Shown: positions 2,860 to 59,363, numbered from the stretch's first letter. The stretch: DNA of 64,000 nucleotides from a virus (IMGVR_UViG_3300030328_001638:3140-67139), one strand, 5' to 3'. Numbers and translations are program-made. Notes: generated from the letters alone by a model not told the origin.

Positions 2860-3033
2860 TTAATTCTTCCTGTACGGAAACATTCGATTAAGACTGTCAC
2901 GTCTGTCATTACAGCCACATCCTCCGTTAGATATAGTGTCTGCTATTTTTTTTATTCCTGTTGCTTGAGTAAACTTTTCTATTGTGTCACCAAGTCCTTT
3001 TGAAGGAGTGGAATTTATTTTAGTTCTTTTCAT
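2860..3033 (-). CDS. Conserved small phage protein (SKGLGDT...CGC..R...LN..FPY type), 57 aa
   Basis: Read manually: MKRTKINSTPSKGLGDTIEKFTQATGIKKIADTISNGGCGCNDRRDSLNRMFPYRKN. Confidence 0.7.
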   Translation of the reverse strand: MKRTKINSTPSKGLGDTIEKFTQATGIKKIADTISNGGCGCNDRRDSLNRMFPYRKN

Positions 3034-3034
3034 T

Positions 3035-3172
3035 TTACTTACAAGTACACATCTTGTTTGGGCAATTTTTAACTGAAAATAATAGTTTAGATACTAACCA
3101 ATTCCAACTACATTGAAATCTGCACCACCATCCTTGTATTTTTAGCCCTAACTTTTCTAATAATTTTCCCAT
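3035..3172 (-). CDS. Small Cys/Trp-rich hypothetical protein, 45 aa
   Basis: Read manually (MGKLLEKLGLKIQGWWCRFQCSW...CPNKMCTCK); fills the operon gap exactly. Confidence 0.6.
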   Translation of the reverse strand: MGKLLEKLGLKIQGWWCRFQCSWNWLVSKLLFSVKNCPNKMCTCK

Positions 3173-3178
3173 TCTTTT

Positions 3179-3427
3179 TTATTTTACTCCTTGTGCTTTT
3201 AAATAATTAAACTTTGGTTTTACATAAACTCTTTGTATCGCTTCATGATCCAAAGCTACCTCTATAACAGGAGGTTTTTCTTTTGTTTCTTTTGTTTCTT
3301 TTGTTTCTTTTTTGTCAATTACCTTTGCTTTAGAATCTTTAACTTCAATAACTACTGAGTCTTTGACTTCAATAGCTTCAGCTTTGACTTTTTTAGAAAC
3401 TTTCTTACGAGTTTTTCTTCTTGCCAT
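3179..3427 (-). CDS. Small basic protein with KET repeats
   Basis: ORF track; Lys/Arg-rich N-terminus; 9-bp tandem repeat at ~3281-3313. Confidence 0.65.
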   Translation of the reverse strand: MARRKTRKKVSKKVKAEAIEVKDSVVIEVKDSKAKVIDKKETKETKETKEKPPVIEVALDHEAIQRVYVKPKFNYLKAQGVK

Positions 3428-5061: not shown

Positions 5062-6687
5062 TTATTTAGCTCTTTGATGAGTAACAATAGCGTTTGTACT
5101 TAAGATAGTAGTAGCTACACTTATAGCATTGCTTAATGCATGTTTAGTTACTTTAAGTGGATCAATAACTCCTAACTTAAACATATTCCCATACTTTTCA
5201 TTTTTTACATCATACCCTAAAAATTCTTCTTCTTCTAATATTTTTACAGGAATATTGCTTTCCTTAAGTATGTCTTTATAATCTAACCCTGCGTTATTTA
5301 AGATTTGGACAAGGGGGGCTTTCAGAGCTTCCATCAATATATGTTTCGCTGCTTTGTCATTTTTATTATTCTTGTTTCCGCAGTCACAGTCCTGTAATGA
5401 GGTAGAGGCATTCCATAAAGCGTATCCTCCTCCAGCGATAATACCTTCTTCAAGTGCTGACTTGACAGCACATACCGAGTCATCGACTCGGTCAAATTTT
5501 TCTTTTTGCTCTACATCACTATTACCTCCTACATATATACATCCTATTCCTCCTGATAGACTTGCTATTCTTTCATTTAAGAATGTTTTTTGATTTACAT
5601 CTGTAGTTGTTTGTTGTTGAACCTTAAGTTCTGCTATACGATTATCTATTTCTTCAGTACGAATATTCTCTTTTAATATAACTGTAGATTGTTGGCCTAC
5701 TATTATTTTGTTTGCATGTCCTAAATCATTAGGAGTAATTAAACTTAAGTCGTCTCCTGTCTTTTCAGAATAGTATTTAGCTCCTACTGCTAAAGCAATA
5801 TCTTGCATTAACTCATGTTGTTTGTATCCAAACTGCGGAGGTTGTATATTACAAAACTTTAAACCATTACGAACTACATTAGCTGCAAGGGTATTTATTA
5901 CATTGGTAGTACACGTTCCTATTATTAATAATTTTTGATTATTATTAATGACGGGTTTTAGTACATTTTCAATTTGAAGTATATTGCTTATTTCACTATC
6001 ACAAACTAAAACCTTAACATCATCTAATATACACTCATCTTTTCTTTGGTCATTAATAAATAAATTAGAAGTGTATCCTCTATTTATTTTAATTCCGTTT
6101 GTTATCTCAGAATAAGTTTCTGATGTCATAGATTTCTCTACCGTTACTACTCCGTCTTTTCCTACCTTGTTATATGCCTGGGCAATAATCTTTCCTAACT
6201 CTTTATCATTGTTAGCCGAAACAGAAGCTACATCTAAAAGTTTCTTTTTATTTACTTTCTGTGATCCTTCTTTTAAATACTTAAATACTCTTTCTTTGTT
6301 TTCATTAACAAACCTAATGACCTCAGTAATATTGTGGGTATCATTTATAATCTCTTGACCTGCTTTAATAATTGCTTCAGTCAATACAATAGCTGTAGTT
6401 GTTCCATCACCCGCTGAGTTAGCAGTTCTATTAGCTGCATCCTTCATCATCTGTATTGCAAGATTAGATACAGGGTCGTCTAACTCAATCGACCTCGCTA
6501 CCGTCACTCCGTCTTTGGTAACTGTAATATTATTAGTATGTTCTGGGGATTCTATTAAAACTGTATTACCCTCTGGGCCGAGTGTACTTTTTACAGCTTT
6601 AGATATTATGGAAATTCCTTCAATTAGTTTTTGTCTTCCTTCATCATCAAAGCAGACATCTTTTGGTATATAGCCTGAAACGCTCAT
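5062..6687 (-). CDS. groL: Chaperonin GroEL
   Basis: STLGPEG, VTKDGVTVA, AGDGTTTA, EEGIIAGGG, GVIDPLKVT motifs; no GGM tail. Confidence 0.97.
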   Translation of the reverse strand: MSVSGYIPKDVCFDDEGRQKLIEGISIISKAVKSTLGPEGNTVLIESPEHTNNITVTKDGVTVARSIELDDPVSNLAIQMMKDAANRTANSAGDGTTTAIVLTEAIIKAGQEIINDTHNITEVIRFVNENKERVFKYLKEGSQKVNKKKLLDVASVSANNDKELGKIIAQAYNKVGKDGVVTVEKSMTSETYSEITNGIKINRGYTSNLFINDQRKDECILDDVKVLVCDSEISNILQIENVLKPVINNNQKLLIIGTCTTNVINTLAANVVRNGLKFCNIQPPQFGYKQHELMQDIALAVGAKYYSEKTGDDLSLITPNDLGHANKIIVGQQSTVILKENIRTEEIDNRIAELKVQQQTTTDVNQKTFLNERIASLSGGIGCIYVGGNSDVEQKEKFDRVDDSVCAVKSALEEGIIAGGGYALWNASTSLQDCDCGNKNNKNDKAAKHILMEALKAPLVQILNNAGLDYKDILKESNIPVKILEEEEFLGYDVKNEKYGNMFKLGVIDPLKVTKHALSNAISVATTILSTNAIVTHQRAK

Positions 6688-6743: not shown

Positions 6744-6937
6744 GTGTTGAGTGTCGATTTTTATTAACTATTTACAACTATAGGTGTTTTATATTATTTT
6801 TATTTTTTACTATTTATATAATTATAGTATAAAATCTACACTAATTTATAAATAAAGATATAAAGATATAATAATCAATAACTTAAGAAAAAAAAAATCT
6901 ACACAAAATCAACACTAATTTATTAATAATCGAACAC
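6744..6937. promoter_or_regulatory. Origin-like element A (AATCNACAC iterons, AT-rich spacer, IHF-consensus site)
   Basis: GTGTTGA/GTGTCGATTT 6744-6760; AATCTACAC at 6833 and 6896; AATCAACAC at 6907; AATCGAACAC at 6928; AATCAAtaacTTA 6873-6885. Confidence 0.6.
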
Positions 6938-9595: not shown

Positions 9596-10294
9596 ATGAA
9601 ACTATTAGAATTATTTAGTGGCTCTCGTTCAATCGGCAAAGTAGCTGAAGCAAGAGGACACGAGGTATTCTCGGTTGATAATGTAGCTTATCCAAAAACT
9701 AATTGGGTAGGAGACATTTTAGATTGGGACTACCGATTAAATGAAATGGAAGTAGGAGAATTAGATGAATTCTACATTCCTGATGTCATATGGGCATCTC
9801 CACCTTGCACCGACTTTTCGGTGGCTTGTATTGGTCGTAAATGGGTCAAAGGACACGAATTTATGCCGAAGGACAATCAGCTTTTAGGAATCAAGATCTT
9901 GGAAAAAACTTTAGAAATTATAAAATTTTACCTTGAGAAGAATCCTGAATTAATTTGGTACATAGAAAATCCAAGAGGTAAAATGCGTAAAGCACCTCAT
10001 TTCCAACATATTTATCATAAAAGAGAAACCATTACATATTGTCAATATGGGGACTCCAGAATGAAACCTACTGATATCTGGACCAATGATATTGGATGGA
10101 AACCAAAACCTATGTGTAAAAATGGGGACACTTGTCATACTCCTGCACCGAGAGGTTCACAGACAGGTACACAAGGACTTAAAGGTAATCACGAACGAAG
10201 CAAGATACCATCTGACTTATGTCAGGAGATTATAGAATCAGCAGAGTTTGAGGTTAACTTTAAGGAAAACATATTACTAACAAAAACTAAATAA
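9596..10294 (+). CDS. C5-cytosine DNA methyltransferase
   Basis: LELFSG (motif I), SPPC (IV), IENP (VI). Confidence 0.88.
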   Translation: MKLLELFSGSRSIGKVAEARGHEVFSVDNVAYPKTNWVGDILDWDYRLNEMEVGELDEFYIPDVIWASPPCTDFSVACIGRKWVKGHEFMPKDNQLLGIKILEKTLEIIKFYLEKNPELIWYIENPRGKMRKAPHFQHIYHKRETITYCQYGDSRMKPTDIWTNDIGWKPKPMCKNGDTCHTPAPRGSQTGTQGLKGNHERSKIPSDLCQEIIESAEFEVNFKENILLTKTK

Positions 10295-12592: not shown

Positions 12593-12667
12593 TGCGAGGT
12601 AGAGCAGTCAGGTCAGCTCGTTGGGTTCATATCCCAAAGGTCGCAGGTTCAAATCCTGCCCTCGCAC
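12593..12667 (+). tRNA. tRNA-Met(CAT), initiator-like
   Basis: TGCGAGG/CCTCGCA acceptor stem, GAGC/GCTC D stem, TTGGG/CCCAA anticodon stem with CAT, GCAGG-TTCAAAT-CCTGC T arm; no encoded CCA. Confidence 0.92.
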
Positions 12668-12914
12668 CTAAAGGCAAAAAGTTTTTTATATTAATTAGCT
12701 ATGAAGTATACGAAGCTGATATGTGAGCCATAGGTTTAACTCATAGAAGTTGCAAATTCTTGTTAAACCTAAAATATTTATTAACCTAAACCTATATCAA
12801 TATGAGTAAGTACGAAGATAAAATCAAAGCATCTTTTTATTCCTTTCTGGTCATGATCCTAATATTAATTTATTTAATTATGAGTAATTATTAGGATTTA
12901 AGGATTTTTTTAAC

Positions 12915-13029: not shown

Positions 13030-13848
13030 ATGCCAAATCATTGCTTTTGTAATATCCAAGTTTACGACAAAAAGGATATTAAATTATTAAAACAAATCGA
13101 ACAAATAGACACTGGACTTGCAGGATTTATTAAGCCAATGCCTGAATGTTTAAACAACACTACAATGCCTGTCAATATTATTTCTCAAAAGGAATATGAT
13201 GAGCAAGAACTGAAAAGAAAAAACAATCCTGAAGAGAGAATCTTTTCATCAGGAATTACTAAAGAGATGCAAACAGAATACAAGGATAAATTTAAATTTG
13301 ACAATTGGTACAATTGGGCATCATTCAATTGGGGAACAAAATGGGGGTGCTATGAGAATGAGGTTAATTTAGACTCTTATACCTTTACTACTGCGTGGTC
13401 TCCACTTGATGATGATATTCTCGAAGCTTTTGCTAAACTAACCACTAAAGGATTCTTTTATACTTTTGAGGAAGAAACAGGATGGGGTGGAGTGAGAGAA
13501 TATGATGAAAATGGAGTATGTAAATCCTATTTTAATTATGAAGAACCTAATTGGGAGGAGATGAGACAATTTTGGATTAACAAGGAAGGGGTTATTAAGG
13601 AAGTTCCTTATGAAGAACATTTAGAAGAGCCTGCAGAAGATTTTGAATATCTATGTGAGGTCTCAGAACTTAAAGAGGATCATGACAATGGATCAGACCA
13701 ATATTCTGTAGGATTTTATGAATGTTATAACCTTCAGGAATACTATGGAAAAACCCTTGCAGATGTTTTTAATGAGGTGTGTAAGGATAAGAATATAGAC
13801 TCTTGGGTTTTTCATTCCCTTCAACAATCCATATCAAGCTTAATTTAA
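13030..13848 (+). CDS. DUF1281/YubB-like ferredoxin-fold protein
   Basis: MPNHC.., NWYNW...NWGTKW, FTTAWSP motifs. Confidence 0.75.
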   Translation: MPNHCFCNIQVYDKKDIKLLKQIEQIDTGLAGFIKPMPECLNNTTMPVNIISQKEYDEQELKRKNNPEERIFSSGITKEMQTEYKDKFKFDNWYNWASFNWGTKWGCYENEVNLDSYTFTTAWSPLDDDILEAFAKLTTKGFFYTFEEETGWGGVREYDENGVCKSYFNYEEPNWEEMRQFWINKEGVIKEVPYEEHLEEPAEDFEYLCEVSELKEDHDNGSDQYSVGFYECYNLQEYYGKTLADVFNEVCKDKNIDSWVFHSLQQSISSLI

Positions 13849-13928
13849 ATAATAACAATAATGGGGGGGGGAGAAAGTTTAAGATTGCACTTCTATCATC
13901 CCCCTTCTATTATTATAACCCAACAATT

Positions 13929-14183
13929 ATGAACAAAATAGATACAATACAGATGATTTTAGAGACTGCACCTTTAGACCAAATTACACCTCATACTTTA
14001 TATGAAGTAATAATGGAAGTAATAGAATCTGAAGAAAAAGCAAATGAAATCGGATTAAAGGAAATAAGACGCATAACAAAACAATTAGATTGGAGTAATG
14101 ACTTTATAGATTATGTAGAAGATCAAATGCCTAATATATATAATGAAGCGTGTGCGTGGGCAGATAAAATGGAAATACAATAA
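13929..14183 (+). CDS. Early hypothetical protein
   Basis: Start reassigned to ATG 13929. Confidence 0.65.
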   Translation: MNKIDTIQMILETAPLDQITPHTLYEVIMEVIESEEKANEIGLKEIRRITKQLDWSNDFIDYVEDQMPNIYNEACAWADKMEIQ

Positions 14184-18682: not shown

Positions 18683-21094
18683 ATGGAGATAACTATATTT
18701 AAAGACATTAAAAATACCTCTCAACCCTTCTATAGAGAGGTCGAAGTAGTATTAAAAAGGATACAAGAAGGAGCATCAAAAGATACTGTAAAAAGTATAC
18801 GACAAGAAAAAGACAAGTCAGAAAGAAACGTAATAAAGCAATCATTACCAGCTATATGTTTTTCTGGACAATTTACAAAAAGAAATGATTCCTCTTTAAG
18901 CGAACATTCAGGATTGATATGTTTGGATTTTGATGGGTATAATTCTACAAAGGATTTACTCCAAGAGAAAGAAAGATTATCTAAAGACAAGTATGTTTTT
19001 TCTACCTTCATAAGCCCAAGTGGACAAGGCCTGAAAGTGTTAGTAAAGATACCAAAGGAAGCAGAAAATCATAAGAATTATTTTTCTTCTTTAGAAAAAC
19101 ATTTTAATTCCCCATACTTTGATACTACATCTAAAAATATATCAAGAGTATGTTACGAATCTTATGATCCTCTAATTCATATCAATGTCAATTCAAGTCT
19201 TTGGGATACCATAATAGACCAAGAGTATACTGAGGTAACAAAAAATCAAGGGGTAGTGACTATTCCTGTAAGCGATGAAAATAAAATTGTAGAAATTTTA
19301 ATGAAATGGTGGGAATCAAAGTATGGTTTAAAGTCAGGAGAAAGAAACAATAATGTATATATTTTAGCATCTGCGTTTAATGACTTTGGTGTTAATCAAA
19401 ATTTAGCTGAATATGTAATGAGTCAATTTTCCTCTAAAGATTTTCCCTCTGCAGAAGTAAAGAGAACAATACAATCTGCTTATTCTAATAAACAAAATTT
19501 TGGTACTAAATTTTATGAGGATGAAGAGAAGGTAAATCAAATAAAGCAAAAATTAAGAAGTGGAGTAACAAAAAAAGAAATTAGATCTCAATTAGTAGAT
19601 GAAAATATTGAGGTCGGTATAATTGATAATGTCATCAACAAGTTAGAAGAGGAATCAGCTAATCATATTTTTTGGAGTAAAAATGAAAAAGGAGTAATTA
19701 AAATTGTACATATACTTTTTAAAAATTTCCTGGAAGAAAATGGGTTCTACAAGTTTAACCCTGAAGGAAGTAAATCTTATGTATTTGTCAAAGTAACCAA
19801 CAATTTAATTGACCATACCTCTGAAAAAGAAATTAAAGATTTCATTCTAAATTACCTCTTACAAGTAGAGGACTACACTATCTATAACTACTTTGCAGAA
19901 CACACACGATATTTTAGAGAAGAGTTTCTTACCCTACTATCTTCTATTAATGTATATTTTATAGAGGATACAAAGGATACAGCTTATTTATATTATAAAA
20001 ACTGCGCTGTTCAGTTGACTAAAGACCAAATTACTACAATAGATTATATAGATTTAGGTGGGTATGTATGGAAGGATCATGTAATAGACAGAACATTTAC
20101 TTTATGTGATGTAGGGGGTTGTGAATACAAAACCTTTATCTCAAATATTTGTGGTGCTGATGAGTCAAGAATCAAATCTATGGAAACCACCATAGGATAT
20201 TTATTGCATGGATGGAAAAATTTAGCTTATTGTCCCGCAGTTATTTTAAATGATGAAGTGATTACAGACAATCCAGAAGGTGGTACAGGAAAAGGACTTT
20301 TTATGAATGCATTAAGTCATATGAAAAAATTAGTTTTTATTGATGGAAAATCTTTTAATTTTGAAAGATCCTTCGCTTACCAAACAGTATCTGCTGATAC
20401 TCAAATTTTATGTTTTGATGATGTAAAGAAGTATTTTGATTTTGAAAGACTCTTTAGTGTTATTACAGAAGGATTAACTTTAGAGAAGAAAAACAAAGAT
20501 GCTATTAAGATTCCTTTTAGCAAGTCGCCTAAGATTGCTATAACTACCAACTATGCAATAAGTGGAGAAGGGACAAGTTTTGAAAGAAGGAAGTGGGAGT
20601 TAGAACTTGCTCAATACTATACCAAAGATTTTACACCCCTTGTAGAATTTGGAAGATTAATGTTTGGAGAATGGAATGATGATGAATGGTGTCAGTTTGA
20701 CAACTATATGATAAAGAACTTACAAAACTATTTAGGATCAGGATTATTAAAGAGTGAATTTGTTAATCTTAGAATTAGAAAACTTTCTGCTAAGACAGGG
20801 CATGATTTTATAGAATGGTGTGGGATAATTGGTACAACTCCATATCAAGATAAACTAAAGTATAATCAAAAGATATATAAAAATGATTTGTATATAGATT
20901 TTGTTGAAGAAAATCCTGACAGATCCATAAGAGGTAAGATGACTATTAGTAGGACCAGGTTTTATAAATGGTTAATATCTTATGGAATATTTCAATATGG
21001 AATTGCTCCAGATGAAGGAAGAGATAATTCAGGAAAATGGATAAAGTTTGTGAGTAAGCAATCTAAAGAAGTAAATGGAAGATTAGACTTATGA
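18683..21094 (+). CDS. Primase-helicase (VirE-N/BT4734-like primase, PriCT, P-loop helicase)
   Basis: SGLICLDFD, FISPSGQGLK, GERNN, Walker A GGTGKG, Walker B LCFDD. Confidence 0.88.
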   Translation: MEITIFKDIKNTSQPFYREVEVVLKRIQEGASKDTVKSIRQEKDKSERNVIKQSLPAICFSGQFTKRNDSSLSEHSGLICLDFDGYNSTKDLLQEKERLSKDKYVFSTFISPSGQGLKVLVKIPKEAENHKNYFSSLEKHFNSPYFDTTSKNISRVCYESYDPLIHINVNSSLWDTIIDQEYTEVTKNQGVVTIPVSDENKIVEILMKWWESKYGLKSGERNNNVYILASAFNDFGVNQNLAEYVMSQFSSKDFPSAEVKRTIQSAYSNKQNFGTKFYEDEEKVNQIKQKLRSGVTKKEIRSQLVDENIEVGIIDNVINKLEEESANHIFWSKNEKGVIKIVHILFKNFLEENGFYKFNPEGSKSYVFVKVTNNLIDHTSEKEIKDFILNYLLQVEDYTIYNYFAEHTRYFREEFLTLLSSINVYFIEDTKDTAYLYYKNCAVQLTKDQITTIDYIDLGGYVWKDHVIDRTFTLCDVGGCEYKTFISNICGADESRIKSMETTIGYLLHGWKNLAYCPAVILNDEVITDNPEGGTGKGLFMNALSHMKKLVFIDGKSFNFERSFAYQTVSADTQILCFDDVKKYFDFERLFSVITEGLTLEKKNKDAIKIPFSKSPKIAITTNYAISGEGTSFERRKWELELAQYYTKDFTPLVEFGRLMFGEWNDDEWCQFDNYMIKNLQNYLGSGLLKSEFVNLRIRKLSAKTGHDFIEWCGIIGTTPYQDKLKYNQKIYKNDLYIDFVEENPDRSIRGKMTISRTRFYKWLISYGIFQYGIAPDEGRDNSGKWIKFVSKQSKEVNGRLDL

Positions 21095-21714
21095 AAATTT
21101 TAATTGCTTGTGAGGAGTCTCAAACTATAACTAATCTATTTAGAGCTAAAGGATATGAAGCTTATTCTTGTGATCTGTTGGATTGTAGCGGGGGTAATCC
21201 TCAATACCATTACAAAGGAGATGCTTTAGTTTATGCTTATAGTGGTCAATTTGATATGATGATTGCTCATCCCCCTTGTACATTTTTAGCAGTTAGTGGA
21301 GCGAGATGGATGTATAATAAAGATGGGAGTGTTAATCAAGAACGCTTATTAAATCAAAGGAAAGCTTTAGAGTTTGTCAGGTTATTAATGAATGCACCGA
21401 TTGAAAAAATTGCTATAGAGAACCCTGTTAGCGTTATCTCCACTAAAATAAGAAAGCCTGATCAGATAGTACAACCTTATTGGTTTGGAGATGAAGCTCG
21501 TAAAACCACTTGTCTATGGTTAAAAAATTTACCCTTACTTAAGCCTACTAACATAGTAGGGAAGGGAGAGCAGGTAGTTTATAAAAGTGGAAAATCACAC
21601 CCTAAATGGTATGCTGAAGCTTTAACCAAAGCTAAAACTCCTGAAGAGAGGAGAAGATTAAGAAGTAAAACTTTTCCAGGAATGGCTAATGCAATAGTTG
21701 AGCAATGGGTATAG
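21091..21714 (+). CDS. C5-cytosine DNA methyltransferase (ACEES..HPPC type)
   Basis: LIACEESQ, AHPPCT, IENP, RSKTFPG.A.A...QW. Confidence 0.85.
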   Translation: MKILIACEESQTITNLFRAKGYEAYSCDLLDCSGGNPQYHYKGDALVYAYSGQFDMMIAHPPCTFLAVSGARWMYNKDGSVNQERLLNQRKALEFVRLLMNAPIEKIAIENPVSVISTKIRKPDQIVQPYWFGDEARKTTCLWLKNLPLLKPTNIVGKGEQVVYKSGKSHPKWYAEALTKAKTPEERRRLRSKTFPGMANAIVEQWV

Positions 21715-25872: not shown

Positions 25873-28800
25873 TTAATTATTATATCGTTGGTTTAAATAC
25901 TGCTGTCTACGCTGTTTCTCTAAATCTTTTAATCTTTGTCGCTCTCTATATTGCGGACTATTTCTTATAGCGTCTTGCTGTTGCTTGTATCTGAAATAAG
26001 CTTCAGGGTTATATCTTTTCATCTCCTCCACACTCAGCTTGTCTGCCTTTTTTTCTTTTGTTCTCTTAGCTTTTCTATCAGCGTCACTTTCCACGACATA
26101 CTCTGAATATTGTAATGCTAATAAAATAAATTCTTGTGGAGAAACATTTCCGTTTAATATTTTATCTGAATTTTTTATTAATCTATCTATCTGTCTGGTA
26201 GGTAACCCCAATGAGTTTAGTAAATCAAAAATAGCTTTTTTGTACAGCTCTTCTTTGGCTGCCTTACTTTTAGCTATAGCTTCAGGTTTACGAGGCTTTC
26301 CATTTTTATCAAATGGTGTTACATTATATTTGTCCGCTTTTTGCAATTCTTTGAAAAATTTAGCAGACACTTCTAATATAGGAATACCCCCCGAGGTTTC
26401 TCCTGTCCAAGGTTTTCCTGTCCACTTATCTCCGTAATAAGTAACTATTTCACCGAGTATAAACATTGCATTTAAATTGCCTAATACTCCTGCTCTCATT
26501 AGGTCTAAGTTATCTTCCTCATCCCATGGGGCTAATATTCCTGGTAAACCTGCGGCAACATATTGAAAGGCTATTGGTAATAAAGAATGGTAAACCATTA
26601 ATCTTCTTGCATTTTCCTTATATGTTCCTTTTCCTTCTTTACTTCCTGACATTGCTTTTCTATATATATTTATCGCAGCCATTAATTCTTGTCTAAAATA
26701 CTGTTTGATAGAAGTTTGAAACATATTTAAACCTCTTGCGTACCATGCGCCTGTTTGAAACTCATCTCTGTCTTGTAGGTCACTTGACTGCTGAGTCATC
26801 TTTGTGTCTCTTTCAAAAAGTCTTACCGCATGCTCGATAGCCTCTTGTTCGGTGGCTTGAGGATTGGCAGCTTTAAATTTATTTTTATAGTGAATATAGT
26901 TAGGTACTCCCCCTATTACTATTGCCCCTTTATCTCCTTGTTTTACCAACCACATCATGACATCTATAAATCTACCTTTCGCTCCTGCAGGAATAACACT
27001 TTTTACATTGCTTTCAGAATAAGACTCTAAAGTTCTTAATATACTCTCCCCATATCTATCTTGGATGTATACAGAATTATTTGATATTTCTTTCCATATC
27101 TTTGAGTATTGAGTAGCATTCATTGCCGCAAGTTTAGACCAATTTCTAAACCCAATAAATGCAGCGTATGCGGGAGCGGATGTTAACTGCTTGATAAATA
27201 TAGTAGGATTAATAGATAATTTACCTATGACAAAAGCAGTAGTTATGTTGTTTACCCATTCCATAGATTTCTCATTACTAACACCTCTATTACCTAATTT
27301 TGTTATCATATTCATAATGCTCTCGTACGGAGTTTTACCAAAATTAAATACAATTTGAGATTTAATATCTTTGTTCTTAAATAATTTACTCATATCATTT
27401 ATCACTTCACCCATTGAAGCAAAATAATTCATATCATTAACATAGGATATTAAAGTAGACATTTGATCCATATCGGCTATAGCCAGAGCATTATTCATCC
27501 TTACTTTTGTGGAAGCAGGAGCGGCAAAGTTTTTAAAAGCATTAGTTCCTGAAGACATTAACTGCATTATATCAGTTTCAGGATTTCTTCCTTCTCTATA
27601 TATTCTCCCTGCGTAATATTGATTCCAAGGCATTGAAGTTCGGTATATCTTTTTATAAGCCTCATTATACCCCTCATATAGTGATGGGAAAAATTCTTCC
27701 ACCTGCCAACGAGATAACTCTTTAACCTCATCGTTTAGCTTAGCTTCCATTTCCGCCATTATTCTTTTATAACCCTTCCCATATTTAGTTTCAAAAGATA
27801 ATTCATTGGCAGGGTCTTTATATTGTGCTACTAAATAAGCCATTTGATTTTGGCTTAACGGAGGCAGTTCTACTCCTGAATCAGTAAATATTCCTGTCGG
27901 CTGTATACTACTATCGTTTTGTGCTTTTGTTTGCCAATTTTTTCCATATACTTCTTCCAGCTTATTATTTATAGCTAAAGTGGTCATCATTTTTCGAGCT
28001 TTATATTCTCGTGTACCTTCGTTTACTTTAACAGAAGTAATTTTTTGTGTTTCATTTCCTAATATATCACCAGGCATTTTTCCAATAACACCCATCCATG
28101 TGGCTAAATCGGAGTTCATATATATAAAATTTCGTGTCGCTATTCCTAAATTCCTAAATGCCTGTACAGCTCTATTTCGTACCTTATTTTTTCTGGCTTC
28201 AGATATTAACCTTGTATCACGCAATAAAACCTCCACTTCTGGATTTTTAATTAGTCGTGGGTTTGCATTTGATTCAGGGAGAAGTTCATTAAAATCAGGG
28301 TTTTCTATATAAGACTTAACTCGCAATCCTGTAATATCATAATACAAAGTTTCAAATTCAGCCACATACTGTAAGTGTTTATCGAATAATTCTTTTTGCA
28401 ATTGAGTTTTCCCTGTCTCAACTAAAGAATTAAGATTATTCAACACATCGTCTAATGCTTCAGTTTTAGAAGTCTCTACATCTTGAGATAATTGAGCATT
28501 TAAAAAATCAATTACAATATTCAAATCAGCTATACTATTTCTATCTTTAGGTGTTAAGTCTGTTTGACTTTCTAATTTAGCTATTTCATCTAAAATTGCC
28601 TGCACTTTATCGTCTATTTGAGTGGTATCATTGAAATTAATTTCATTAATCATTGCTTTGATACCTTTAAGCCTTTTATGAACCTCATGACTTACCTTAT
28701 AGCCTTTTGGTCTACCTGCCTGTATATCTTCATACTTTCCATTAAGAATCTCTTCAATCTTGTTTGTTAAAGCTTGATTTGTTTTCTTATTAACAAACTC

Positions 28801-31800
28801 TACAACCTCAGCTTTTTTATTTTCTATATTTTCTAAATTCGCATTAGTTATACTTCTAATAAGCTTTACAACTTCAGGTCGAGAAAATACATAGTTAGGT
28901 AAAGCTTGTCTTATAAAGTTTCTTAAATCTCGCTTTACTTCATCTAATTCTTTTCTTCCTTTTACTCTTTGTGTTAATATTTGTTTAGCTCTTTTAATTC
29001 TTCCTCCAACATCTTGCAATACTGTACCTGAAAAGGCAGTTTTCATTTGCGCTATCATTTGAGCTTGTTGAGTACTGAATCCATTTTCAAAAGTTTCACC
29101 CTGATATTCAGGAGTACTTTCTAAAAACTCGACTGTCATTTCATCTATTTGACCTTGAGTATATTTATAAAGCTTTTTACCATCCTTCTGAGCTTTATCT
29201 TGAAGAGTATTAATTTGTTTTTGAATCTTTTTAATTTCATTATTTATCTTCTCAACTCTTTTTTTGTTTTTAAAAATTGTAGGTTGATCTAAATCTATTT
29301 TAAGCTTGTCTATTTTACTTAATAGGTTAGTTATTTTTTTACCCACAGGGGTAAGATTATTATTCATTAACTTATTTCTATAAGCCACAACCTTATCAAA
29401 TAGCTTTAAACCATTCATCATACCTCCTGCAATATTTCCAAAAGCCTTTGGTACATTCTCTAAAGTATATCCGCTTATTTTCATAAGAGGATTTATCTCA
29501 CTCATCTTATATTTTAATCCTTTTAAATAAGTAATAATCGTATTTTCTTTTATATTATTCATACGTCCTAATCTCACGATATCAATAATATTTTTAGACT
29601 CTCGTCCAATTTCATTAATAGATTTTTGTTTACGTACCGTTTTAAACGGATTAAAAAATCTACCATTTCTTTTAAAATAATGCCCTACTAATTCTCCACT
29701 TCTATACCCTTCTCTTATGTAAGCAGCATGTACTGTTAAACCTAATTCTGCTGCCGCTCTTTTTAAGTTTTGAATATTATAAATATTAGCGGGCATAAAT
29801 CCTTTAAAATTCATGTTGTAGTTACTTCCTAAATTTTGTGCGCTTTTTTGTTTACGCACACTAATAGTTCCTACTTTAGGTATTGCTCCTGCAGAACTCG
29901 ATACATTACTTTGTTTAAACTTCGTATCTCCTACTAACTTTTTAACTGATGTAGCAGGGGTTGATCCTTTATTAAATTTAGTGTAAGAATTAGTTACCTC
30001 AGTAGACTGATAAAATTCAGTTGGCTGATAAATACCTTCAATTTTTGCTTTTATCGTCCAACCAAAAGACGGGTGATAATCCACATCCCCTGGCTTAGGT
30101 TGTGAAATAACCATACTCTCAGGAACAAATTCTGTTATACCTATTAAATCAAATGCTTGACTATTTTTATTAGCAGGGTCTTCTAAACGGCCTGCAAATT
30201 CATTTTTGTTTTTTACACCTATTGCTTCTTGATATGCTTTGTTTGCTGATAGTTTATCATTTAATGCTTTTCTTAAATTAGGTGAAAAATTGTTTTCTAT
30301 ATTTAATCCTTCAACTATTTCTTTAATAGTTAAATCATTAAAACTTTTTATATCATTTCTCCCTGATTTCTTTTTGTATTGCTCAAAAGCTTTTTTCCCT
30401 ACCTCATTAGTCAATACTTCATTAAATACATTTTTCATTTCTTGTTCGGTCAAAATCTTGTTGTCTAAAGCTACATTTACCAAGCCTTCAAATATAGCTT
30501 GTTGAAATTGCCAAGAGTTTTGATCCGTCCCTCTATGAGGTATAAATAAATTAGCATCTCCTTGTAAGACATTACGAATAAAAGTGGCAGCCTGACTTTC
30601 AGTATTGAACGCAGCTAAATTAGATATATCCCCTAAATTTTTCCCTGCTCTTTCCATCATATCAGCTACATAGTTTTTTCCTCCATACAGCGTCATGCTT
30701 AGACCATTACCTAATTCAGTAAGTCCTGACATAGTAAAGTCATACATATTAGTAACAAAATTTCTTCCTGCAAAATCAGCTAAAGATTTATCTTTTATAT
30801 GTTTTGCAAAAGGTCTTTGGTCATTAGATATAGGAGGGGCTTTTCTTCCTTTTTGTTTTCTTTGTTGATTAATATTTATATCCGTACCAACTTGACCTCC
30901 TGTCCCTTGTTCTTGTTTTTGATTAAATTTAGTTTTCATATCCAAAGCTGCTATATCTGATTCAGTTATAGTCTCTCCTGTTTGAATTTTACCTGCTAAT
31001 CTATTGAGTAAATTAATTACATCTTGAGAAGATTGACCCACCTCTATACCTAATTTTTCTGCAATAGCCTCTATCCATTTTCTTATTTTACTTTTAGTAG
31101 GAGCATCAAACTGAGTATAGTTATCTGCTATCATTCCAAATATTTCTGCAAGTCTTTCTTCATTCTGTATTTCACTATCGTAATTTTTAATAAATTTCCT
31201 TAACTCCCCTCTTACTTCCTTTGGTATACTTCTACTTCTTACTAAAGCTTGAACCATACGTTTTGTAACTGCTTGAGCTAATTTGTCATTAAATTTTAAT
31301 TTATTAATTAATACTGCATGAAATATTTCATGACCTACGGTTCTTCCTGTAGCGTTTGCAAGATTAATATGAATAGTGTTGTCCAGTCTTTGATAAAATG
31401 CATTATCATTATCTTTATCTAATTTAGTATAAGAGTCCTCATCTCGATGTACTACTATTTTTAAACTTGGAAATATTTTAGCTACAGCTCGAGCTGCCAT
31501 TTTAGCTTGCTCTACAATACTTTGCTTGCCTTTAACTCTATTGTTAGGAGATGATGTAAAAGATAAGTTTTCACTTACTTCATTTACTTCTATATCGCTT
31601 TCTTTATTTTCGACATTAAATACTTTCTTTTTAGAAGTAGGGTTAGAGTCTATATCTTGATCTGATTTAGATTCAGGGTCTACCATAGCTTCAAAGTCAG
31701 ATAGCTCTTGACTATCTACTTCCTCTTCGGTCTGTACCCTGTCTTGACTCTCTGTTTCGGCTTCGTTCTGGTTTCCGATGTCACCTTCTCTGGTAGGATC

Positions 31801-34539
31801 TGATTGGGATTCCTGTTCTTCCACAGGTGATATATTTGAGGCAGATTCTTTTTTAGCCAATTCTTCTGCCTTTCGCTTTTGAAGCTCATTTAATTTCGTG
31901 TTTATTTGTTCTGGAGTGGGATTTTCCACACCCTCTTCTTTTAATTGATTTATAGCGTCTTCTTCAGTTATCTCATCTTCTTCTACTCTCCCTCTTGTGG
32001 TCTCTTGATTTTGTTGATAAGCTTTATAACTTAATGAAGCTAACTCTGAGGCTATAGTTTTTAACTGATCCATTTGTCTGGTAACAGAACTTGGGTCTTT
32101 ACCTGCAATTTCTTGTTCTATTCTTTGTTTGTTTAACAACAATCCTAATGCTTCCTTTTTTTGTTGAGTACTATAATCTTCAGGTATTTGTGAATAAACT
32201 CCTTTAATTTCATTAAACATAGCCTCTTGTTCTTTGGCTTCTTCCAGAGTCAGTTTACCTTGATTAACTTGGTCTTTTAACCACAATGTATATATTCGTG
32301 AAGACTTACCATCATTCTTATCATCATTAGCCATATCTTCAAAAACCTCAAACATACCATCATCCATACGAGTAAAATCCTTACTCGCTGCCATATTACT
32401 CATTGCTCCTGGTACACCCATAATCCAACCACCAACCATCTCTTGCGCACCTGCTCTTAAAGTTTGTAATACAGCATCTCCAAAGGTCTCTGGAAGAACA
32501 AACATGTCTTTATTTTTTATAAGTTCGTTATAAACATATTTACCTCCAAGGTCAGCAATTTCTTGAGCAAAACCTGTTTCAAATTCAGCAAAACCTGCGG
32601 CACCTACAGTTAAAACTCCACGAGCCACCATGTTATCTACTTCGTTTCTAACTACTTCTGAAAAATTTCTTCCTCTTACTTGTGCCACGTTACGGTACTT
32701 CCCTATAGACCTTAATAAAACTGCATTTAAAATTCCTTTTTGGCTCAGTACATTTCTTAACCCTATAGCTTCTAAAGTTGCTACTACCGCACCTATAGGA
32801 AGCATAATAGCTTGCCTTTCATTTTCAGATATATCTGCAAACTGAGGGTTATTCTCCATTTCTTCATTTAAATGATCTGAAACTTGCGAATACATTTGTG
32901 CTGTACGTTGCGCCCAACCTGCAGGGTTATTACCCCCTATCATTGCAGGAAGAGATTCTACTAAACCTAAATAGGCTCCTCCCCAAAATCCTTGCTTTGT
33001 TAAATCATTATATTCTTTTGTAGCACCGCTTGATCCTAATACTTCTCTTGCTCCCGCTCTTTGAAAATCTATCATCCCCATATTTTCAGGTAACTCTTTC
33101 CATTGTTTAAGTGATTCTTTAGAATAATAAGTTCCTAAAGGAGCTGTTTTTTTAACCGCCACCCCTCTATCATCATAATCATAAGTATTGTATTTTAAAT
33201 CCTTTTTTAAAATATCTTGAACCTTATCAGTTACTTCTTGTTGTTGTTCAGCTGTAAGCTGCTCAAGATATTCTTCCCAAGTTCTGCTATCATTTTTACC
33301 AGGGAAGGGTATCTGATACATCTCTTCAGCAACTCCTGCAAACATTTTTCTAAAATTTTGCTCACCCGCACCTCCAGAAGGAAGGGCTTCTACCGCCATA
33401 TCTATTATTGCATTCATTCCCCCTGCACCCATCCGAGCTACTCCATCCCAAAATGCATTTTGAGTTGCTGCTGATGTCTCTCCTTGCTCAGTTTGCATTT
33501 GATTGTACTCACCCATTACTCTATCAATTTCACCACCTCTTGTTTTTAACTTACTATCTCTCACCATTAATTCGGCTTGCATAGTATTTAATTGCTGCTT
33601 TTTCTGTATATATTGGTTATATAAAGGACGAGTAGAAGGTTCATTAATTTGTTCTTGAGTTAAACCTCCAAAGACTGCATCTAATGCATCAACCTCAGTT
33701 TTAAATCGAAGGAAGCTTTCAATATCTTTATTAAAATAATTAGCGTCTTTATTTAACAGGGTTATAGTAGCATCAATTTTTTTATCAGTTAGGATTTTTC
33801 GTTCCAACTTAGAATAACCTTCTTCAGCTAATTTTAATCTTCTACTTTCCTTTTTATTTTCTATAAGAAAATCAGCAAGTTTATTTCTTTGTTTTTTCTT
33901 TCCGCCTGAAAACCATTGAGGTACATCTATTATAGCTGTGATGTCTCTAAATAAACTGTCACCTCCAATTAAATCTAAATTAACATTAATTGATTCTCCA
34001 TTAGCTGCTGTAACAGTCATAGCATCACCTAACCCTCCTGCCTCTTCAAAAGTAAATCCATATTGATTAAAATGATAATTTAATAAAGGAACAACATATT
34101 GTTCTTCGTGAGTCATTAAGTCTTGACTAACAGCCTGCATAGAGTGAAGAAATGGGTCGTCTTCTTGTTTTTTTACTTCTTCATGTGCCGCACTATATTC
34201 TTGAAATTCTTGTTGAGTTACCTCTTGGCCATCGATAGTATAAGTTTCAGTCTCTTCATCATATTGAGCTGTTTCTTGACCTTCTGAAAAATCACCACCT
34301 TCTGGAGTGACGGGTTTATCAATCTTAAACCACCCTTCGTAATCAGGCTGACTACGCTCCCTTGCAGTTGATTGTGTGAGTAAACTTTTTAAACCTCCCC
34401 AACTCTCTCTTCCTGATGTTTGGGAAGGTGTTAGTCCAGCATCAAAATATTCTTGGTCAAGAGTTGTGGTGCTTTGATCTGTGGTTTGAGTGGTAGATTG
34501 GGAAGTATCCGAAGGTGAAGTTGTCTGACCTGTACCCAA
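25873..34539 (-). CDS. Giant polyvalent ejection protein with zincin-like metallopeptidase (probably fused to the upstream ORF via -1 shift)
   Basis: 2888 aa, helical; GHEIFH...EERLAE; follows tail and ejection genes; only a weak TTG start. Confidence 0.8.
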   Translation of the reverse strand: MGTGQTTSPSDTSQSTTQTTDQSTTTLDQEYFDAGLTPSQTSGRESWGGLKSLLTQSTARERSQPDYEGWFKIDKPVTPEGGDFSEGQETAQYDEETETYTIDGQEVTQQEFQEYSAAHEEVKKQEDDPFLHSMQAVSQDLMTHEEQYVVPLLNYHFNQYGFTFEEAGGLGDAMTVTAANGESINVNLDLIGGDSLFRDITAIIDVPQWFSGGKKKQRNKLADFLIENKKESRRLKLAEEGYSKLERKILTDKKIDATITLLNKDANYFNKDIESFLRFKTEVDALDAVFGGLTQEQINEPSTRPLYNQYIQKKQQLNTMQAELMVRDSKLKTRGGEIDRVMGEYNQMQTEQGETSAATQNAFWDGVARMGAGGMNAIIDMAVEALPSGGAGEQNFRKMFAGVAEEMYQIPFPGKNDSRTWEEYLEQLTAEQQQEVTDKVQDILKKDLKYNTYDYDDRGVAVKKTAPLGTYYSKESLKQWKELPENMGMIDFQRAGAREVLGSSGATKEYNDLTKQGFWGGAYLGLVESLPAMIGGNNPAGWAQRTAQMYSQVSDHLNEEMENNPQFADISENERQAIMLPIGAVVATLEAIGLRNVLSQKGILNAVLLRSIGKYRNVAQVRGRNFSEVVRNEVDNMVARGVLTVGAAGFAEFETGFAQEIADLGGKYVYNELIKNKDMFVLPETFGDAVLQTLRAGAQEMVGGWIMGVPGAMSNMAASKDFTRMDDGMFEVFEDMANDDKNDGKSSRIYTLWLKDQVNQGKLTLEEAKEQEAMFNEIKGVYSQIPEDYSTQQKKEALGLLLNKQRIEQEIAGKDPSSVTRQMDQLKTIASELASLSYKAYQQNQETTRGRVEEDEITEEDAINQLKEEGVENPTPEQINTKLNELQKRKAEELAKKESASNISPVEEQESQSDPTREGDIGNQNEAETESQDRVQTEEEVDSQELSDFEAMVDPESKSDQDIDSNPTSKKKVFNVENKESDIEVNEVSENLSFTSSPNNRVKGKQSIVEQAKMAARAVAKIFPSLKIVVHRDEDSYTKLDKDNDNAFYQRLDNTIHINLANATGRTVGHEIFHAVLINKLKFNDKLAQAVTKRMVQALVRSRSIPKEVRGELRKFIKNYDSEIQNEERLAEIFGMIADNYTQFDAPTKSKIRKWIEAIAEKLGIEVGQSSQDVINLLNRLAGKIQTGETITESDIAALDMKTKFNQKQEQGTGGQVGTDININQQRKQKGRKAPPISNDQRPFAKHIKDKSLADFAGRNFVTNMYDFTMSGLTELGNGLSMTLYGGKNYVADMMERAGKNLGDISNLAAFNTESQAATFIRNVLQGDANLFIPHRGTDQNSWQFQQAIFEGLVNVALDNKILTEQEMKNVFNEVLTNEVGKKAFEQYKKKSGRNDIKSFNDLTIKEIVEGLNIENNFSPNLRKALNDKLSANKAYQEAIGVKNKNEFAGRLEDPANKNSQAFDLIGITEFVPESMVISQPKPGDVDYHPSFGWTIKAKIEGIYQPTEFYQSTEVTNSYTKFNKGSTPATSVKKLVGDTKFKQSNVSSSAGAIPKVGTISVRKQKSAQNLGSNYNMNFKGFMPANIYNIQNLKRAAAELGLTVHAAYIREGYRSGELVGHYFKRNGRFFNPFKTVRKQKSINEIGRESKNIIDIVRLGRMNNIKENTIITYLKGLKYKMSEINPLMKISGYTLENVPKAFGNIAGGMMNGLKLFDKVVAYRNKLMNNNLTPVGKKITNLLSKIDKLKIDLDQPTIFKNKKRVEKINNEIKKIQKQINTLQDKAQKDGKKLYKYTQGQIDEMTVEFLESTPEYQGETFENGFSTQQAQMIAQMKTAFSGTVLQDVGGRIKRAKQILTQRVKGRKELDEVKRDLRNFIRQALPNYVFSRPEVVKLIRSITNANLENIENKKAEVVEFVNKKTNQALTNKIEEILNGKYEDIQAGRPKGYKVSHEVHKRLKGIKAMINEINFNDTTQIDDKVQAILDEIAKLESQTDLTPKDRNSIADLNIVIDFLNAQLSQDVETSKTEALDDVLNNLNSLVETGKTQLQKELFDKHLQYVAEFETLYYDITGLRVKSYIENPDFNELLPESNANPRLIKNPEVEVLLRDTRLISEARKNKVRNRAVQAFRNLGIATRNFIYMNSDLATWMGVIGKMPGDILGNETQKITSVKVNEGTREYKARKMMTTLAINNKLEEVYGKNWQTKAQNDSSIQPTGIFTDSGVELPPLSQNQMAYLVAQYKDPANELSFETKYGKGYKRIMAEMEAKLNDEVKELSRWQVEEFFPSLYEGYNEAYKKIYRTSMPWNQYYAGRIYREGRNPETDIMQLMSSGTNAFKNFAAPASTKVRMNNALAIADMDQMSTLISYVNDMNYFASMGEVINDMSKLFKNKDIKSQIVFNFGKTPYESIMNMITKLGNRGVSNEKSMEWVNNITTAFVIGKLSINPTIFIKQLTSAPAYAAFIGFRNWSKLAAMNATQYSKIWKEISNNSVYIQDRYGESILRTLESYSESNVKSVIPAGAKGRFIDVMMWLVKQGDKGAIVIGGVPNYIHYKNKFKAANPQATEQEAIEHAVRLFERDTKMTQQSSDLQDRDEFQTGAWYARGLNMFQTSIKQYFRQELMAAINIYRKAMSGSKEGKGTYKENARRLMVYHSLLPIAFQYVAAGLPGILAPWDEEDNLDLMRAGVLGNLNAMFILGEIVTYYGDKWTGKPWTGETSGGIPILEVSAKFFKELQKADKYNVTPFDKNGKPRKPEAIAKSKAAKEELYKKAIFDLLNSLGLPTRQIDRLIKNSDKILNGNVSPQEFILLALQYSEYVVESDADRKAKRTKEKKADKLSVEEMKRYNPEAYFRYKQQQDAIRNSPQYRERQRLKDLEKQRRQQYLNQRYNN

Positions 34540-34772
34540 AGCCTCTTCTCGAGAAGTGCCAAAATCTTTTTTTTTTTTATTTTCTCAGTCCATAAACTAA
34601 TAGGTTCTCTCTTGGCAAAAGTAGCATCTTTAGAGGCTATCCATTGATACATTTCATCTGCATACTGAAGATCCTGCATGTTGTTTTCAAAATCCTCATA
34701 GCTATACCTTTGATTAAAAGTGCTGTCTTGAGTTTGAATCCAGTTAAATAATTCTACTAAATATTCATTCAT
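34431..34772 (-). CDS. N-terminal segment of the giant protein (pre-frameshift ORF)
   Basis: ATG coupled to upstream stop; reads into the A12G run (KKKK). Confidence 0.7.
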   Translation of the reverse strand: MNEYLVELFNWIQTQDSTFNQRYSYEDFENNMQDLQYADEMYQWIASKDATFAKREPISLWTEKIKKKKILALLEKRLWVQVRQLHLRILPNLPLKPQIKAPQLLTKNILMLD

Positions 34773-47632: not shown

Positions 47633-47677
47633 AAAAAAAAAAGGAGCTACTTTTTTTGTAACTCCTTCTCCTTCTTA
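47633..47677 (-). terminator. Intrinsic terminator
   Basis: AAGGAGTTAC/GTAGCTCCTT followed by T-run on the minus strand. Confidence 0.75.
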
Positions 47678-57678: not shown

Positions 57679-58242
57679 TTAAATTGCTAAAGTTATATTA
57701 CGAGTGTACATGCGATAAAGTTTTTCTCCCTCTATTGTAAACTCATATTCAGAATTTGGTTGATAACTCACTTCATCCCCTATATTTAAACCTAAAGATA
57801 ACAACTCATCGTTAATATACTTTATAGTACCGAATAAAGCTTCTTCTTTAGAAAATTTTTCAATAATATATTTTTTTTCTTTTGAAGGTTTTATAAAGCA
57901 ATAAGGGTTAAATGCTTTCCATTTATCAAGATGTTTGTATAAAAAAAACTGATCAGGGTCTACAAAAAATAAATCGTCCTTAAAATAGCTTTTACCACTT
58001 TTTCTTCGTCCATACATATCATTATAAAATTTAAATACATTATGATGGACTAATAATGTGTCTCCAACTTGAATATCTCCTGAGTAATTTAAGGGTAGGG
58101 CTACTACTTGAGCGTAGCGATTAGAAGATTTAAAATCTTCTTCAGACGTACTTGTTATAAAATCCACTTCTCCATAAGATTTTATATTATCGTATCGTCT
58201 GTTGTTAAAGGGCTTAACAATAAACGAAAAAGGTGATTGCAT
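57679..58242 (-). CDS. Tandem GroES-like two-domain protein
   Basis: FIVKP...VVALP...IQVGD.LL and FIKP...G.IKY...L.IGDEV.Y.......IEGEKLYRM. Confidence 0.55.
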   Translation of the reverse strand: MQSPFSFIVKPFNNRRYDNIKSYGEVDFITSTSEEDFKSSNRYAQVVALPLNYSGDIQVGDTLLVHHNVFKFYNDMYGRRKSGKSYFKDDLFFVDPDQFFLYKHLDKWKAFNPYCFIKPSKEKKYIIEKFSKEEALFGTIKYINDELLSLGLNIGDEVSYQPNSEYEFTIEGEKLYRMYTRNITLAI

Positions 58243-59294: not shown

Positions 59295-59363
59295 TTGATT
59301 TTTTTTTATTAATTAAACTTTTTTTAGTAATTAACCACAAAGATAGTTATTTTTTTTTTAATA

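Follow-up and report, generated by a model that had tools for sequence, protein, structure and literature searches.

A conserved run of adenines near the 5' end of a giant phage virion gene as a candidate programmed slippage site

We examined a run of adenines near the 5' end of a gene for a giant virion-type protein, both in a 64,000-nucleotide (nt) stretch of virus DNA, hereafter the window (bases 3140-67139 of the 67,139-nt record IMGVR_UViG_3300030328_001638, rated complete by CheckV; positions are counted from the first base of the window), and in the relatives of that gene. Sequence comparison makes it reasonably probable, in our estimation, that the run is a programmed slippage site, with the giant protein read in frame, a short isoform made by way of a conserved open reading frame (ORF) in the -1 frame, and the twelve adenines (A12) of the window a variant of an in-frame run of thirteen (A13). 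The initial annotation had taken the run for a slippery site that joins a short ORF to the giant one. Its view of the run as a recoding-type site is upheld by the conservation of the run as DNA and by the conserved overlapping ORF; its view of the frame break as the programmed state of this genome is not.

On the minus strand the site reads ...GAG AAA ATA AAA AAA AAA AAG ATT TTG..., and the run (T12 on the plus strand) is the longest homopolymer in the window, for which a composition-only model of independent, identically distributed bases expects 0.14 T runs of at least 12 per 64 kb. The A12 site, a short ORF of 113 amino acids (aa), a giant frame lying one base back from it, a TGA closing that frame upstream of the run and a palindrome downstream had all been described in the initial annotation and are all present in the window sequence (Table 1); the giant frame had also been said to have no ATG nearby, and no methionine occurs among the 70 residues after the run. 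With an A added, or with a -1 shift, the reading becomes ...KIKKKKDFGTSREEALGTGQ and the fused protein has 69 + 9 + 2,888 = 2,966 aa. An A_AAA_AAG heptamer of the X_XXY_YYZ form is present in the zero frame of the short ORF.

The run and the overlapping frame across relatives

To survey the site we compared 162 loci: two from cultured phages, and 80 each from viral contigs and metagenomes, taken as the best of 216 and 242 relatives respectively. The site was present in 147 loci, which gave 120 unique sites after removal of duplicates. Most of the other 15 have their 5' end cut off at a contig edge, two of them (L107 and L132) do carry the run when inspected by eye, and a complete N-terminus with no run was found at L037 and L050 (the latter on the same contig as L162). 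The frame is continuous at 118 of the unique sites; of the remaining two, one runs into a contig end and L133 is broken. Run length is largely uniform, with A10 in 108 unique sites, A11 in nine, A12 in two and A9 in one; with the clade of the window included, the family ranges from A9 to A13.

This uniformity holds while the reading of the run changes. Its first A is the third base of a codon in 87 sites, the second in 29 and the first in two; depending on the genome the encoded residues are VKKKD, EKKN or QKKK, at a length of A10 throughout. The protein alignment shows two nearly invariant lysines, K67 and K68, and the lysine codons of the motif are AAA rather than AAG by 156 to 2, against 69% AAA gene-wide (first 80 loci); A10 is retained even where AAA makes up no more than 25-30% of the lysine codons of a gene. 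Because A10 is kept across three registers and in AAG-preferring genes, we take the conserved object to be the DNA tract. A homopolymer of at least about 9 A/T within a coding region, conserved at the nucleotide level beyond what the protein requires, is what is looked for in a slippage site, and both features are found here.

The run is also present in cultured phages: as A10 at codon 56 of the giant gene gp18 of Flavobacterium phage elemoE_6-9C, as A10 near codon 50 of gp074 of Tenacibaculum phage Gundel_1, and as A10 near the 5' end of the giant gene in Cellulophaga phages phi38:1 (gp101) and Calle_1. When the DNA around the site was searched against cultured phages there was no match, and a scan of viral contigs with a single protein as query likewise gave none, whereas alignment-based scans succeeded. 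In some homologues a short A-rich leader also lies upstream of the ATG of the giant gene, for example an A9 just upstream of it in L015 and L032.

Beyond the run, the -1 frame, which one extra A would reach, has no stop within 15 codons at any of the 120 unique sites (median open length 32; range 15-49 codons in the first 65 sites). In controls for those 65 sites, the same openness was seen at 13% of random in-gene positions and in 24% of synonymous shuffles of the 80 downstream codons. Upstream of the run the frame is closed after a median of 3 codons, and an ATG in it before the conserved motif is absent from all 120 sites, so that the -1 frame could be entered only from the frame of the N-terminal domain, at the run; independent initiation of the -1 ORF was rejected on the same two grounds. 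The -1 tails align on a core [YF]G[IF]..G.W[FW][FI]G, with the stop a few codons later, and the looser motif [WFY]xxG occurs in 113 of the 120. Their composition (20% Arg/Lys, 24% aromatic, 15% Gly) differs from that of the giant frame over the same bases (24% Asp/Glu, 25% Ser/Thr). In the members that have no run (L037 and L050), both other frames are full of stops.

Three measures bear on the coding status of this frame. Mean pairwise identity over the same bases in 66 sequences was 0.316 for the -1 frame, 0.235 for the giant frame and 0.245 for the +1 frame. One glycine column is filled in 66 of 66 sequences in the -1 frame, with GG fixed and the third base free, and another in 59 of 66, with a third-base entropy of 1.86 bits; read in the giant frame, these third bases occupy codon position 2. 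In ungapped pairs of relatives that are 70-98% identical, substitutions fell at giant-frame positions 1/2/3 in shares of 24/17/59% in the N-terminal domain (77 pairs), 25/36/39% from the run to the -1 stop (69 pairs) and 25/17/58% past the -1 stop (37 pairs). Taken together, the pairwise identity, the glycine wobble and the shift in substitutions point to protein-level selection on the -1 frame.

The same pattern appears when the window is compared with L004 (67% identical), where 20 differences occur over the 110 nt that follow the run, 13 of them at giant-frame second positions, and where identity is 29/35 in the third frame (34564-34460, FWHFSRRGFGYRSDNFTFGYF...), 23/35 in the giant frame and 22/35 in the frame of the 113-aa ORF. 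The +1 frame, which carries the tail of the 113-aa ORF, was rejected as a coding frame on this last figure, on an identity like that of the giant frame and on the lack of any rise in first-position substitutions. The initial annotation had treated the 113-aa ORF as the partner of the giant frame; the conserved peptide sits in the third frame instead.

Length variation at the run

The best database match of the giant protein (P0001, 2,966 aa) is 100% identical over the part searched, and its N-terminus is exactly that of the fused reading. The 90%-identity cluster of P0001 has nine members, of which seven are full length; five of these seven, from four source collections, have 2,966 aa, and the remaining two, including the window's own record, have 2,888 aa. 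A continuous protein, P0127, is identical to the window protein over all 2,887 shared residues, while the second split member differs from the window protein at 5 residues. The split form is accordingly found on two haplotypes, and one haplotype is found in both forms.

Four sequencing runs (X1-X4) were compared at the site as assembled contigs rather than raw reads. In X1, the deepest, a 10,392-nt contig with a word depth of 46 spans the site with one extra T behind 34566, that is, with A13. The contigs of X2 end and begin inside the run, and those of X3 and X4 do not cover it and are uninformative on its length. The in-frame A13 is the majority form. The initial annotation had made a -1 shift a requirement for linking the short ORF with the giant protein in this genome, while naming A13 in reads and continuous homologues as what would speak for an assembly error instead, and the latter is largely what is seen, with A13 in the X1 contig, continuous 2,966-aa proteins in 5/7 assemblies and continuous frames at 118/120 homologue sites. 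The same genotype, moreover, occurs elsewhere with the in-frame length (the X1 contig, P0127 and the five assemblies).

One-A-short forms recur elsewhere in the family. The one-A-short split of the window is repeated in another clade, that of the four metagenome contigs L130-L133: L132 and L133 (A11) have 0 mismatches to L130 and L131 (A12) over the 3,000 nt after the run, which lies near 1500-1520 in L130 and L133. Two short ORFs from sister clades (P0132 and P0134) have tails in the +1 frame, which is the one-A-short state. In the GenBank records of Cellulophaga phages phi13:2, phi18:3, phi46:3 and phi19:3 the run is A9 and the giant virion gene is annotated as two coding sequences (CDS), at 3001-3264 and 3276 onward in L164 and at 1812/1815-2123 and 2135 onward in L166, L167 and L168. 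The giant CDS starts in these four records are set well downstream of the point at which the frame opens, and with A10 the gene would be continuous, as it is in Gundel_1 and phi38:1.

No one-A-long form was seen among the loci and records compared. None of the 108 unique A10 metagenomic loci is broken, and run-length variation among the metagenomes is confined to the longer runs (A11-A13). Run length differs and the frame switches among otherwise identical sequences, in contig-level data where homopolymer error would give the same pattern. The window A12 is a one-A-short length variant of A13, either a homopolymer undercall or a real minority genotype, and the one-A-short pattern as a whole fits deletion-biased homopolymer miscalls and real, contraction-biased variants rescued by slippage equally well. 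Since one-A-short forms recur, run length may have a phase-variable or dosage role.

Proposed mechanism, precedents and rival explanations

Under the mechanism that we propose, unslipped expression of an in-frame run would give the giant virion protein, and an extra A inserted into the mRNA by RNA polymerase (RNAP) would carry decoding into the overlapping -1 ORF; a -1 ribosomal shift on A_AAA_AAA would be a less likely route. The short isoform would consist of the helical N-terminal domain, the lysine run and a basic, aromatic, Gly-rich tail of 15-49 residues, and our guess is that it acts as an assembly or packaging adaptor that shares the N-terminal docking domain of the giant protein. Were the A12 genotype real, the giant protein would need a slip of +1 A and the short isoform a slip of +2 A.

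Polymerase slippage is favoured over a ribosomal shift, on the pattern of conservation, because a length of 10 is held in any register, whereas a ribosome would need the heptamer only; because 9-10 is the length of the RNAP hybrid and nine A/T slip efficiently (hybrid of 9-10 bp and efficient slippage at 9 A/T as described in PMC5009743); and because no RNA structure is conserved downstream. When the 70 nt after the run were folded and compared with shuffles, the window gave z = +0.69, and 66 sequences gave a mean z of -0.18 with 3% below -2. The palindrome, put forward in the initial annotation as a downstream element, was rejected as a frameshift stimulator on these results. No phage RNA polymerase was recognised among the window genes in the Pfam and PHROGs annotation, and the giant gene is probably transcribed by host RNAP.

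Among the closest known systems is dnaX of Thermus thermophilus, in which slippage on a run of 9 A/T yields tau and gamma, with ~50% truncated product (PMC5009743). There, too, the long product lies in one continuous frame, the homopolymer has the length of the hybrid, and extra-A mRNAs give a shorter protein with the same N-terminus. In dnaX, however, both other frames stop at once, whereas the phage -1 frame runs for 15-49 codons with a conserved peptide; dnaX also encodes a clamp-loader subunit, while the site here lies in a giant phage virion gene and its slippage is read from sequence. The potyvirus P3N-PIPO and Shigella spa13/mxiE cases share with the phage site a short homopolymer within a long ORF, a trans-frame C-terminal part and an overlapping frame with no start of its own (as outlined in PMC5009743), and they differ in belonging to a viral RNA-dependent RNA polymerase or to bacterial secretion genes, with shorter runs in the potyviruses, as against a DNA phage gene that host RNAP would transcribe.

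The -1 frameshifting systems (Escherichia coli dnaX, insertion sequence elements and lambda G/GT) resemble the site in their common N-terminus, set ratio and A_AAA_AAG/A heptamer. Here, by contrast, there is no downstream stimulator, run length is conserved rather than the heptamer and, unlike in lambda G/GT, the shifted product would be the short one. In insect endosymbionts, genes broken at long poly(A) tracts are rescued, with 12-50% of transcripts corrected by slippage (PMC5009743). By analogy, a gene broken by one base would still be expressible, and a real A12 form would probably be rescued in this way; the endosymbiont case is one of tolerated decay, however, whereas the phage tract is conserved and would be useful in its in-frame state.

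Several considerations weigh against programmed slippage at an in-frame run. The surveyed loci are mutually related, so that the counts overstate the number of independent events, and the survey took only the best-scoring viral-contig and metagenome relatives. At 111/120 sites the +1 frame, too, runs at least 15 codons without a stop (median 36; 52% in synonymous shuffles), an unusual openness that goes with no sign of protein-level conservation, and the tail peptide has no known fold or function. One-A-short split forms, moreover, recur in the window clade (2/7), in L132/L133, in P0132/P0134 and in the four Cellulophaga A9 records, and so the in-frame state may not be the only functional one.

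The model of the initial annotation, in which the genome is truly A12 and an obligatory -1 frameshift or +1 A slip joins the two ORFs and sets a low copy number, draws on that recurrence. It can point to the split form in two of seven near-identical assemblies, on two haplotypes, to the one-A-short state of L133, P0132, P0134 and the four Cellulophaga A9 phages, to the giant CDS of phi18:3, which comes from a split record and is annotated as found in the virion by tandem mass spectrometry (MS/MS), and to A_AAA_AAG as the efficient shift site of E. coli dnaX (by the account in PMC5009743). It is nonetheless decidedly unlikely, given that 5/7 assemblies and the X1 contig are in frame along with 118/120 unique sites, that the conserved peptide is not in the frame of the 113-aa ORF and that no stimulatory structure was found. 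Every broken case, in addition, is a single-A deletion, the usual direction of homopolymer undercalls; the Cellulophaga phage genomes were presumably pyrosequenced. A related idea makes the run a DNA contingency locus, at which replication slippage would switch the giant injected protein on and off or alter its dose (phase variation). The differing lengths of L130-L133 (A12, A12, A11, A11) beside 0 mismatches in 3,000 nt, the continuous and split forms of P0127 and the window protein with 2,887 identical aa, the breaking of the X2 contigs exactly at the run and the restriction of variation to A11-A13 metagenome runs would all be expected of such a locus. In contig-level data, however, sequencing or assembly error at long homopolymers predicts the same pattern, and 0/108 unique A10 sites are broken, so that we hold this idea, too, to be improbable.

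Ribosomal -1 frameshifting by tRNA-Lys on A_AAA_AAA/G would give the same products as polymerase slippage, and a zero-frame A_AAA_AAA heptamer is available in every register; heptamers of Lys codons are classic bacterial shift sites (as treated in PMC5009743). Seven A's would be enough for it, yet the length is 10 in 108/120 sites across three registers, no downstream structure is conserved at any spacing, and a length of 9-10 fits the RNAP hybrid; we see this route as somewhat unlikely. That nothing at all is programmed, and that a conserved Lys-Lys-Lys motif in AT-rich genomes has met with plain assembly error in the window, is very improbable. The near-invariance of K67/K68, genomes of 30-38% GC and the A13 of other assemblies are consistent with it. 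The run is kept, however, where it encodes EKKN or QKKK rather than VKKK and in AAG-preferring genes, members lacking the run also lack the open frames, and the -1 ORF, the wobble pattern and the codon-position switch in substitutions would be left unaccounted for.

Going further than programmed slippage at an in-frame run, a three-way switch may be imagined in which one 5' segment feeds the giant protein, the -1 isoform and a +1 product, with lengths of A9-A13 setting the ratios and one-A-short genotypes being real, heritable and rapidly reversible dosage variants. We think this rather unlikely; if true, an injected anti-defence protein would be under the control of a phage contingency locus across the radiation of Flavobacteriia phages.

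Programmed slippage is known from insertion sequence elements, dnaX, type III secretion genes and RNA viruses, and the textbook case of recoding in tailed phages is the tail-chaperone frameshift. The class of mechanism is known; what seems to be new is this example, how widely it occurs and its position in giant virion proteins. Full-text literature searches found no published report of the site, and the words frameshift, slippage and homopolymer do not occur in the main text of the flavophage paper PMC8776804, whose supplements could hold gene-level notes. The candidate recoding site lies in the largest gene of many marine Flavobacteriia phages, among them cultured Pervagoviridae, Pachyviridae and Elemovirus and >100 uncultured lineages. 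If confirmed, it would add a hidden, conserved small protein to these phage genomes, explain the repeated splitting of the giant gene at the run in databases and so guide annotators, and offer, in phi38:1 or phi18:3 on Cellulophaga baltica, a tractable system for work on the tuning of giant packaged protein dose by run length. As regards the window, the message is modest, namely that the frame break is not to be taken as a fixed programmed frameshift.

The giant protein, its phage and further features of the window

The features of the site in the window are collected in Table 1. Neither the giant nor the short ORF of the window matched any family in Pfam (E <= 0.01) or PHROGs, while the giant protein has 289 homologues at E <= 0.001 among 7,997 candidates scored. 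Several of these homologues (among them P0027, P0080, P0108 and P0110) carry LPD23, LPD38, ART-PolyVal, DNA-methylase/methyltransferase or metallopeptidase modules in the middle of the scaffold, and the homologue in phi18:3, gp123, is annotated 'virion structural protein, MS/MS'.

Table 1. Features at the A-run site of the window (positions in the window; all on the minus strand)
Feature	Position	Strand	Remarks
A12 homopolymer (T12 on plus strand), candidate slippery run	34567..34578	-	One A below the in-frame A13 form
Short ORF, 113 aa, ATG start	34431..34772	-	From ORF list; 64 codons precede ATA AAA AAA AAA AAG
Giant ORF, 2,888 aa, TTG start	25873..34539	-	From ORF list
Giant frame, open from 34584, stop at 25875-25873	25873..34584	-	GAT at 34566 onward corresponds to residues 70-2966 of continuous P0001
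TGA closing the giant frame directly upstream of the run	34585..34587	-	From sequence
Segment encoding the N-terminal domain, 69 codons, ATG at 34772 to AAG at 34568-34566	34566..34772	-	Identical to P0001 residues 1-69; common to every product of the gene
Overlapping third-frame ORF (-1 relative to giant frame), 35 codons FWHFSRRGFGYRSDNFTFGYFPIYHSNHRSKHHNS + stop	34457..34564	-	Conserved; would form the tail of the short isoform
Tail of the 113-aa ORF (+1 relative to giant frame), 44 codons + TAA	34431..34565	-	Read unslipped only in the A12 form
Palindrome CTTCTCGAGAAG	34545..34556	-	10 nt past the last A; neither a significant nor a conserved structure

Polyvalent proteins are giant proteins of phages and conjugative elements, with multiple effector domains, that are packaged and injected. 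The domains of the homologues suggest that the protein family is built in this way, and the label 'ejection protein' is plausible because of these polyvalent domains and the virion annotation in phi18:3. The likeness to polyvalent proteins (Pfam LPD, ART-PolyVal) extends to giant size, interchangeable modules in the middle of a conserved scaffold and, again by the phi18:3 annotation, occurrence in the virion; the difference is that the window protein itself has no Pfam match at the above threshold, the modules being seen in homologues only. A profile search of the PDB with the family alignment (A1) returned a fibrinogen match at E 0.0024, which was judged meaningless. The N-terminal domain is predicted to be all-helical, with six helices in two three-helix repeats (mean pLDDT, a predicted local distance difference test score, of 77.6), and its fold had no Foldseek match in the PDB.

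Within the same alignment, the consensus near P0001 residues 1109-1151 (about 31120-31250 of the window, minus strand) contains an HExxH-like ...TVxHEIFHAVLLNK..., with H1109, E1149 and F1151 nearly invariant, a pattern suggestive of a metallopeptidase-like module within the conserved scaffold. Among cultured phages, this part matched Elemovirus gp18 alone.

The genes of the window fall into a minus-strand block, with the large terminase, portal, virion proteins and tail-fibre-like proteins, and a plus-strand block with a BT4734-type primase, helicase, Erf, exonuclease and two DNA methyltransferases. With the portal of the Flavobacterium Elemovirus podophages the window portal shares 47% identity, and it also matches Cellulophaga, Tenacibaculum and Maribacter phages. 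On the strength of these matches the host is probably a marine member of the Flavobacteriia, and we infer that the phage is a marine podophage of Flavobacteriia type. The genomes that carry the giant gene are AT-rich, at 30-38% GC, with the window at ~30%.

Other features of the window were recorded along the way. A GroEL-like gene lies at 5065-6687 on the minus strand (phrog_5725, E 4e-133) and a GroES-like gene at 57682-58242 on the same strand (phrog_13932); cpn10 is listed among the core genes of the Pervagoviridae in Table 2 of PMC8776804. The two DNA methyltransferases, at 9596-10291 and 21091-21711 on the plus strand, are paralogues, both assigned to phrog_757, and a single tRNA-Met (CAT) gene is found at 12593-12668 on the plus strand, within the early/replication block. 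Three further 10-base A/T runs, A10 at 6888-6897 and 47633-47642 and T10 at 59350-59359, are intergenic according to the ORF list. A run of nine G (G9) stands straight after an ATG at 13860-13871 on the plus strand of this ~30% GC genome; the site lies between an ORF at 13030-13848 and an ORF ending at 14183, and may be a second length-variable homopolymer at a gene start.

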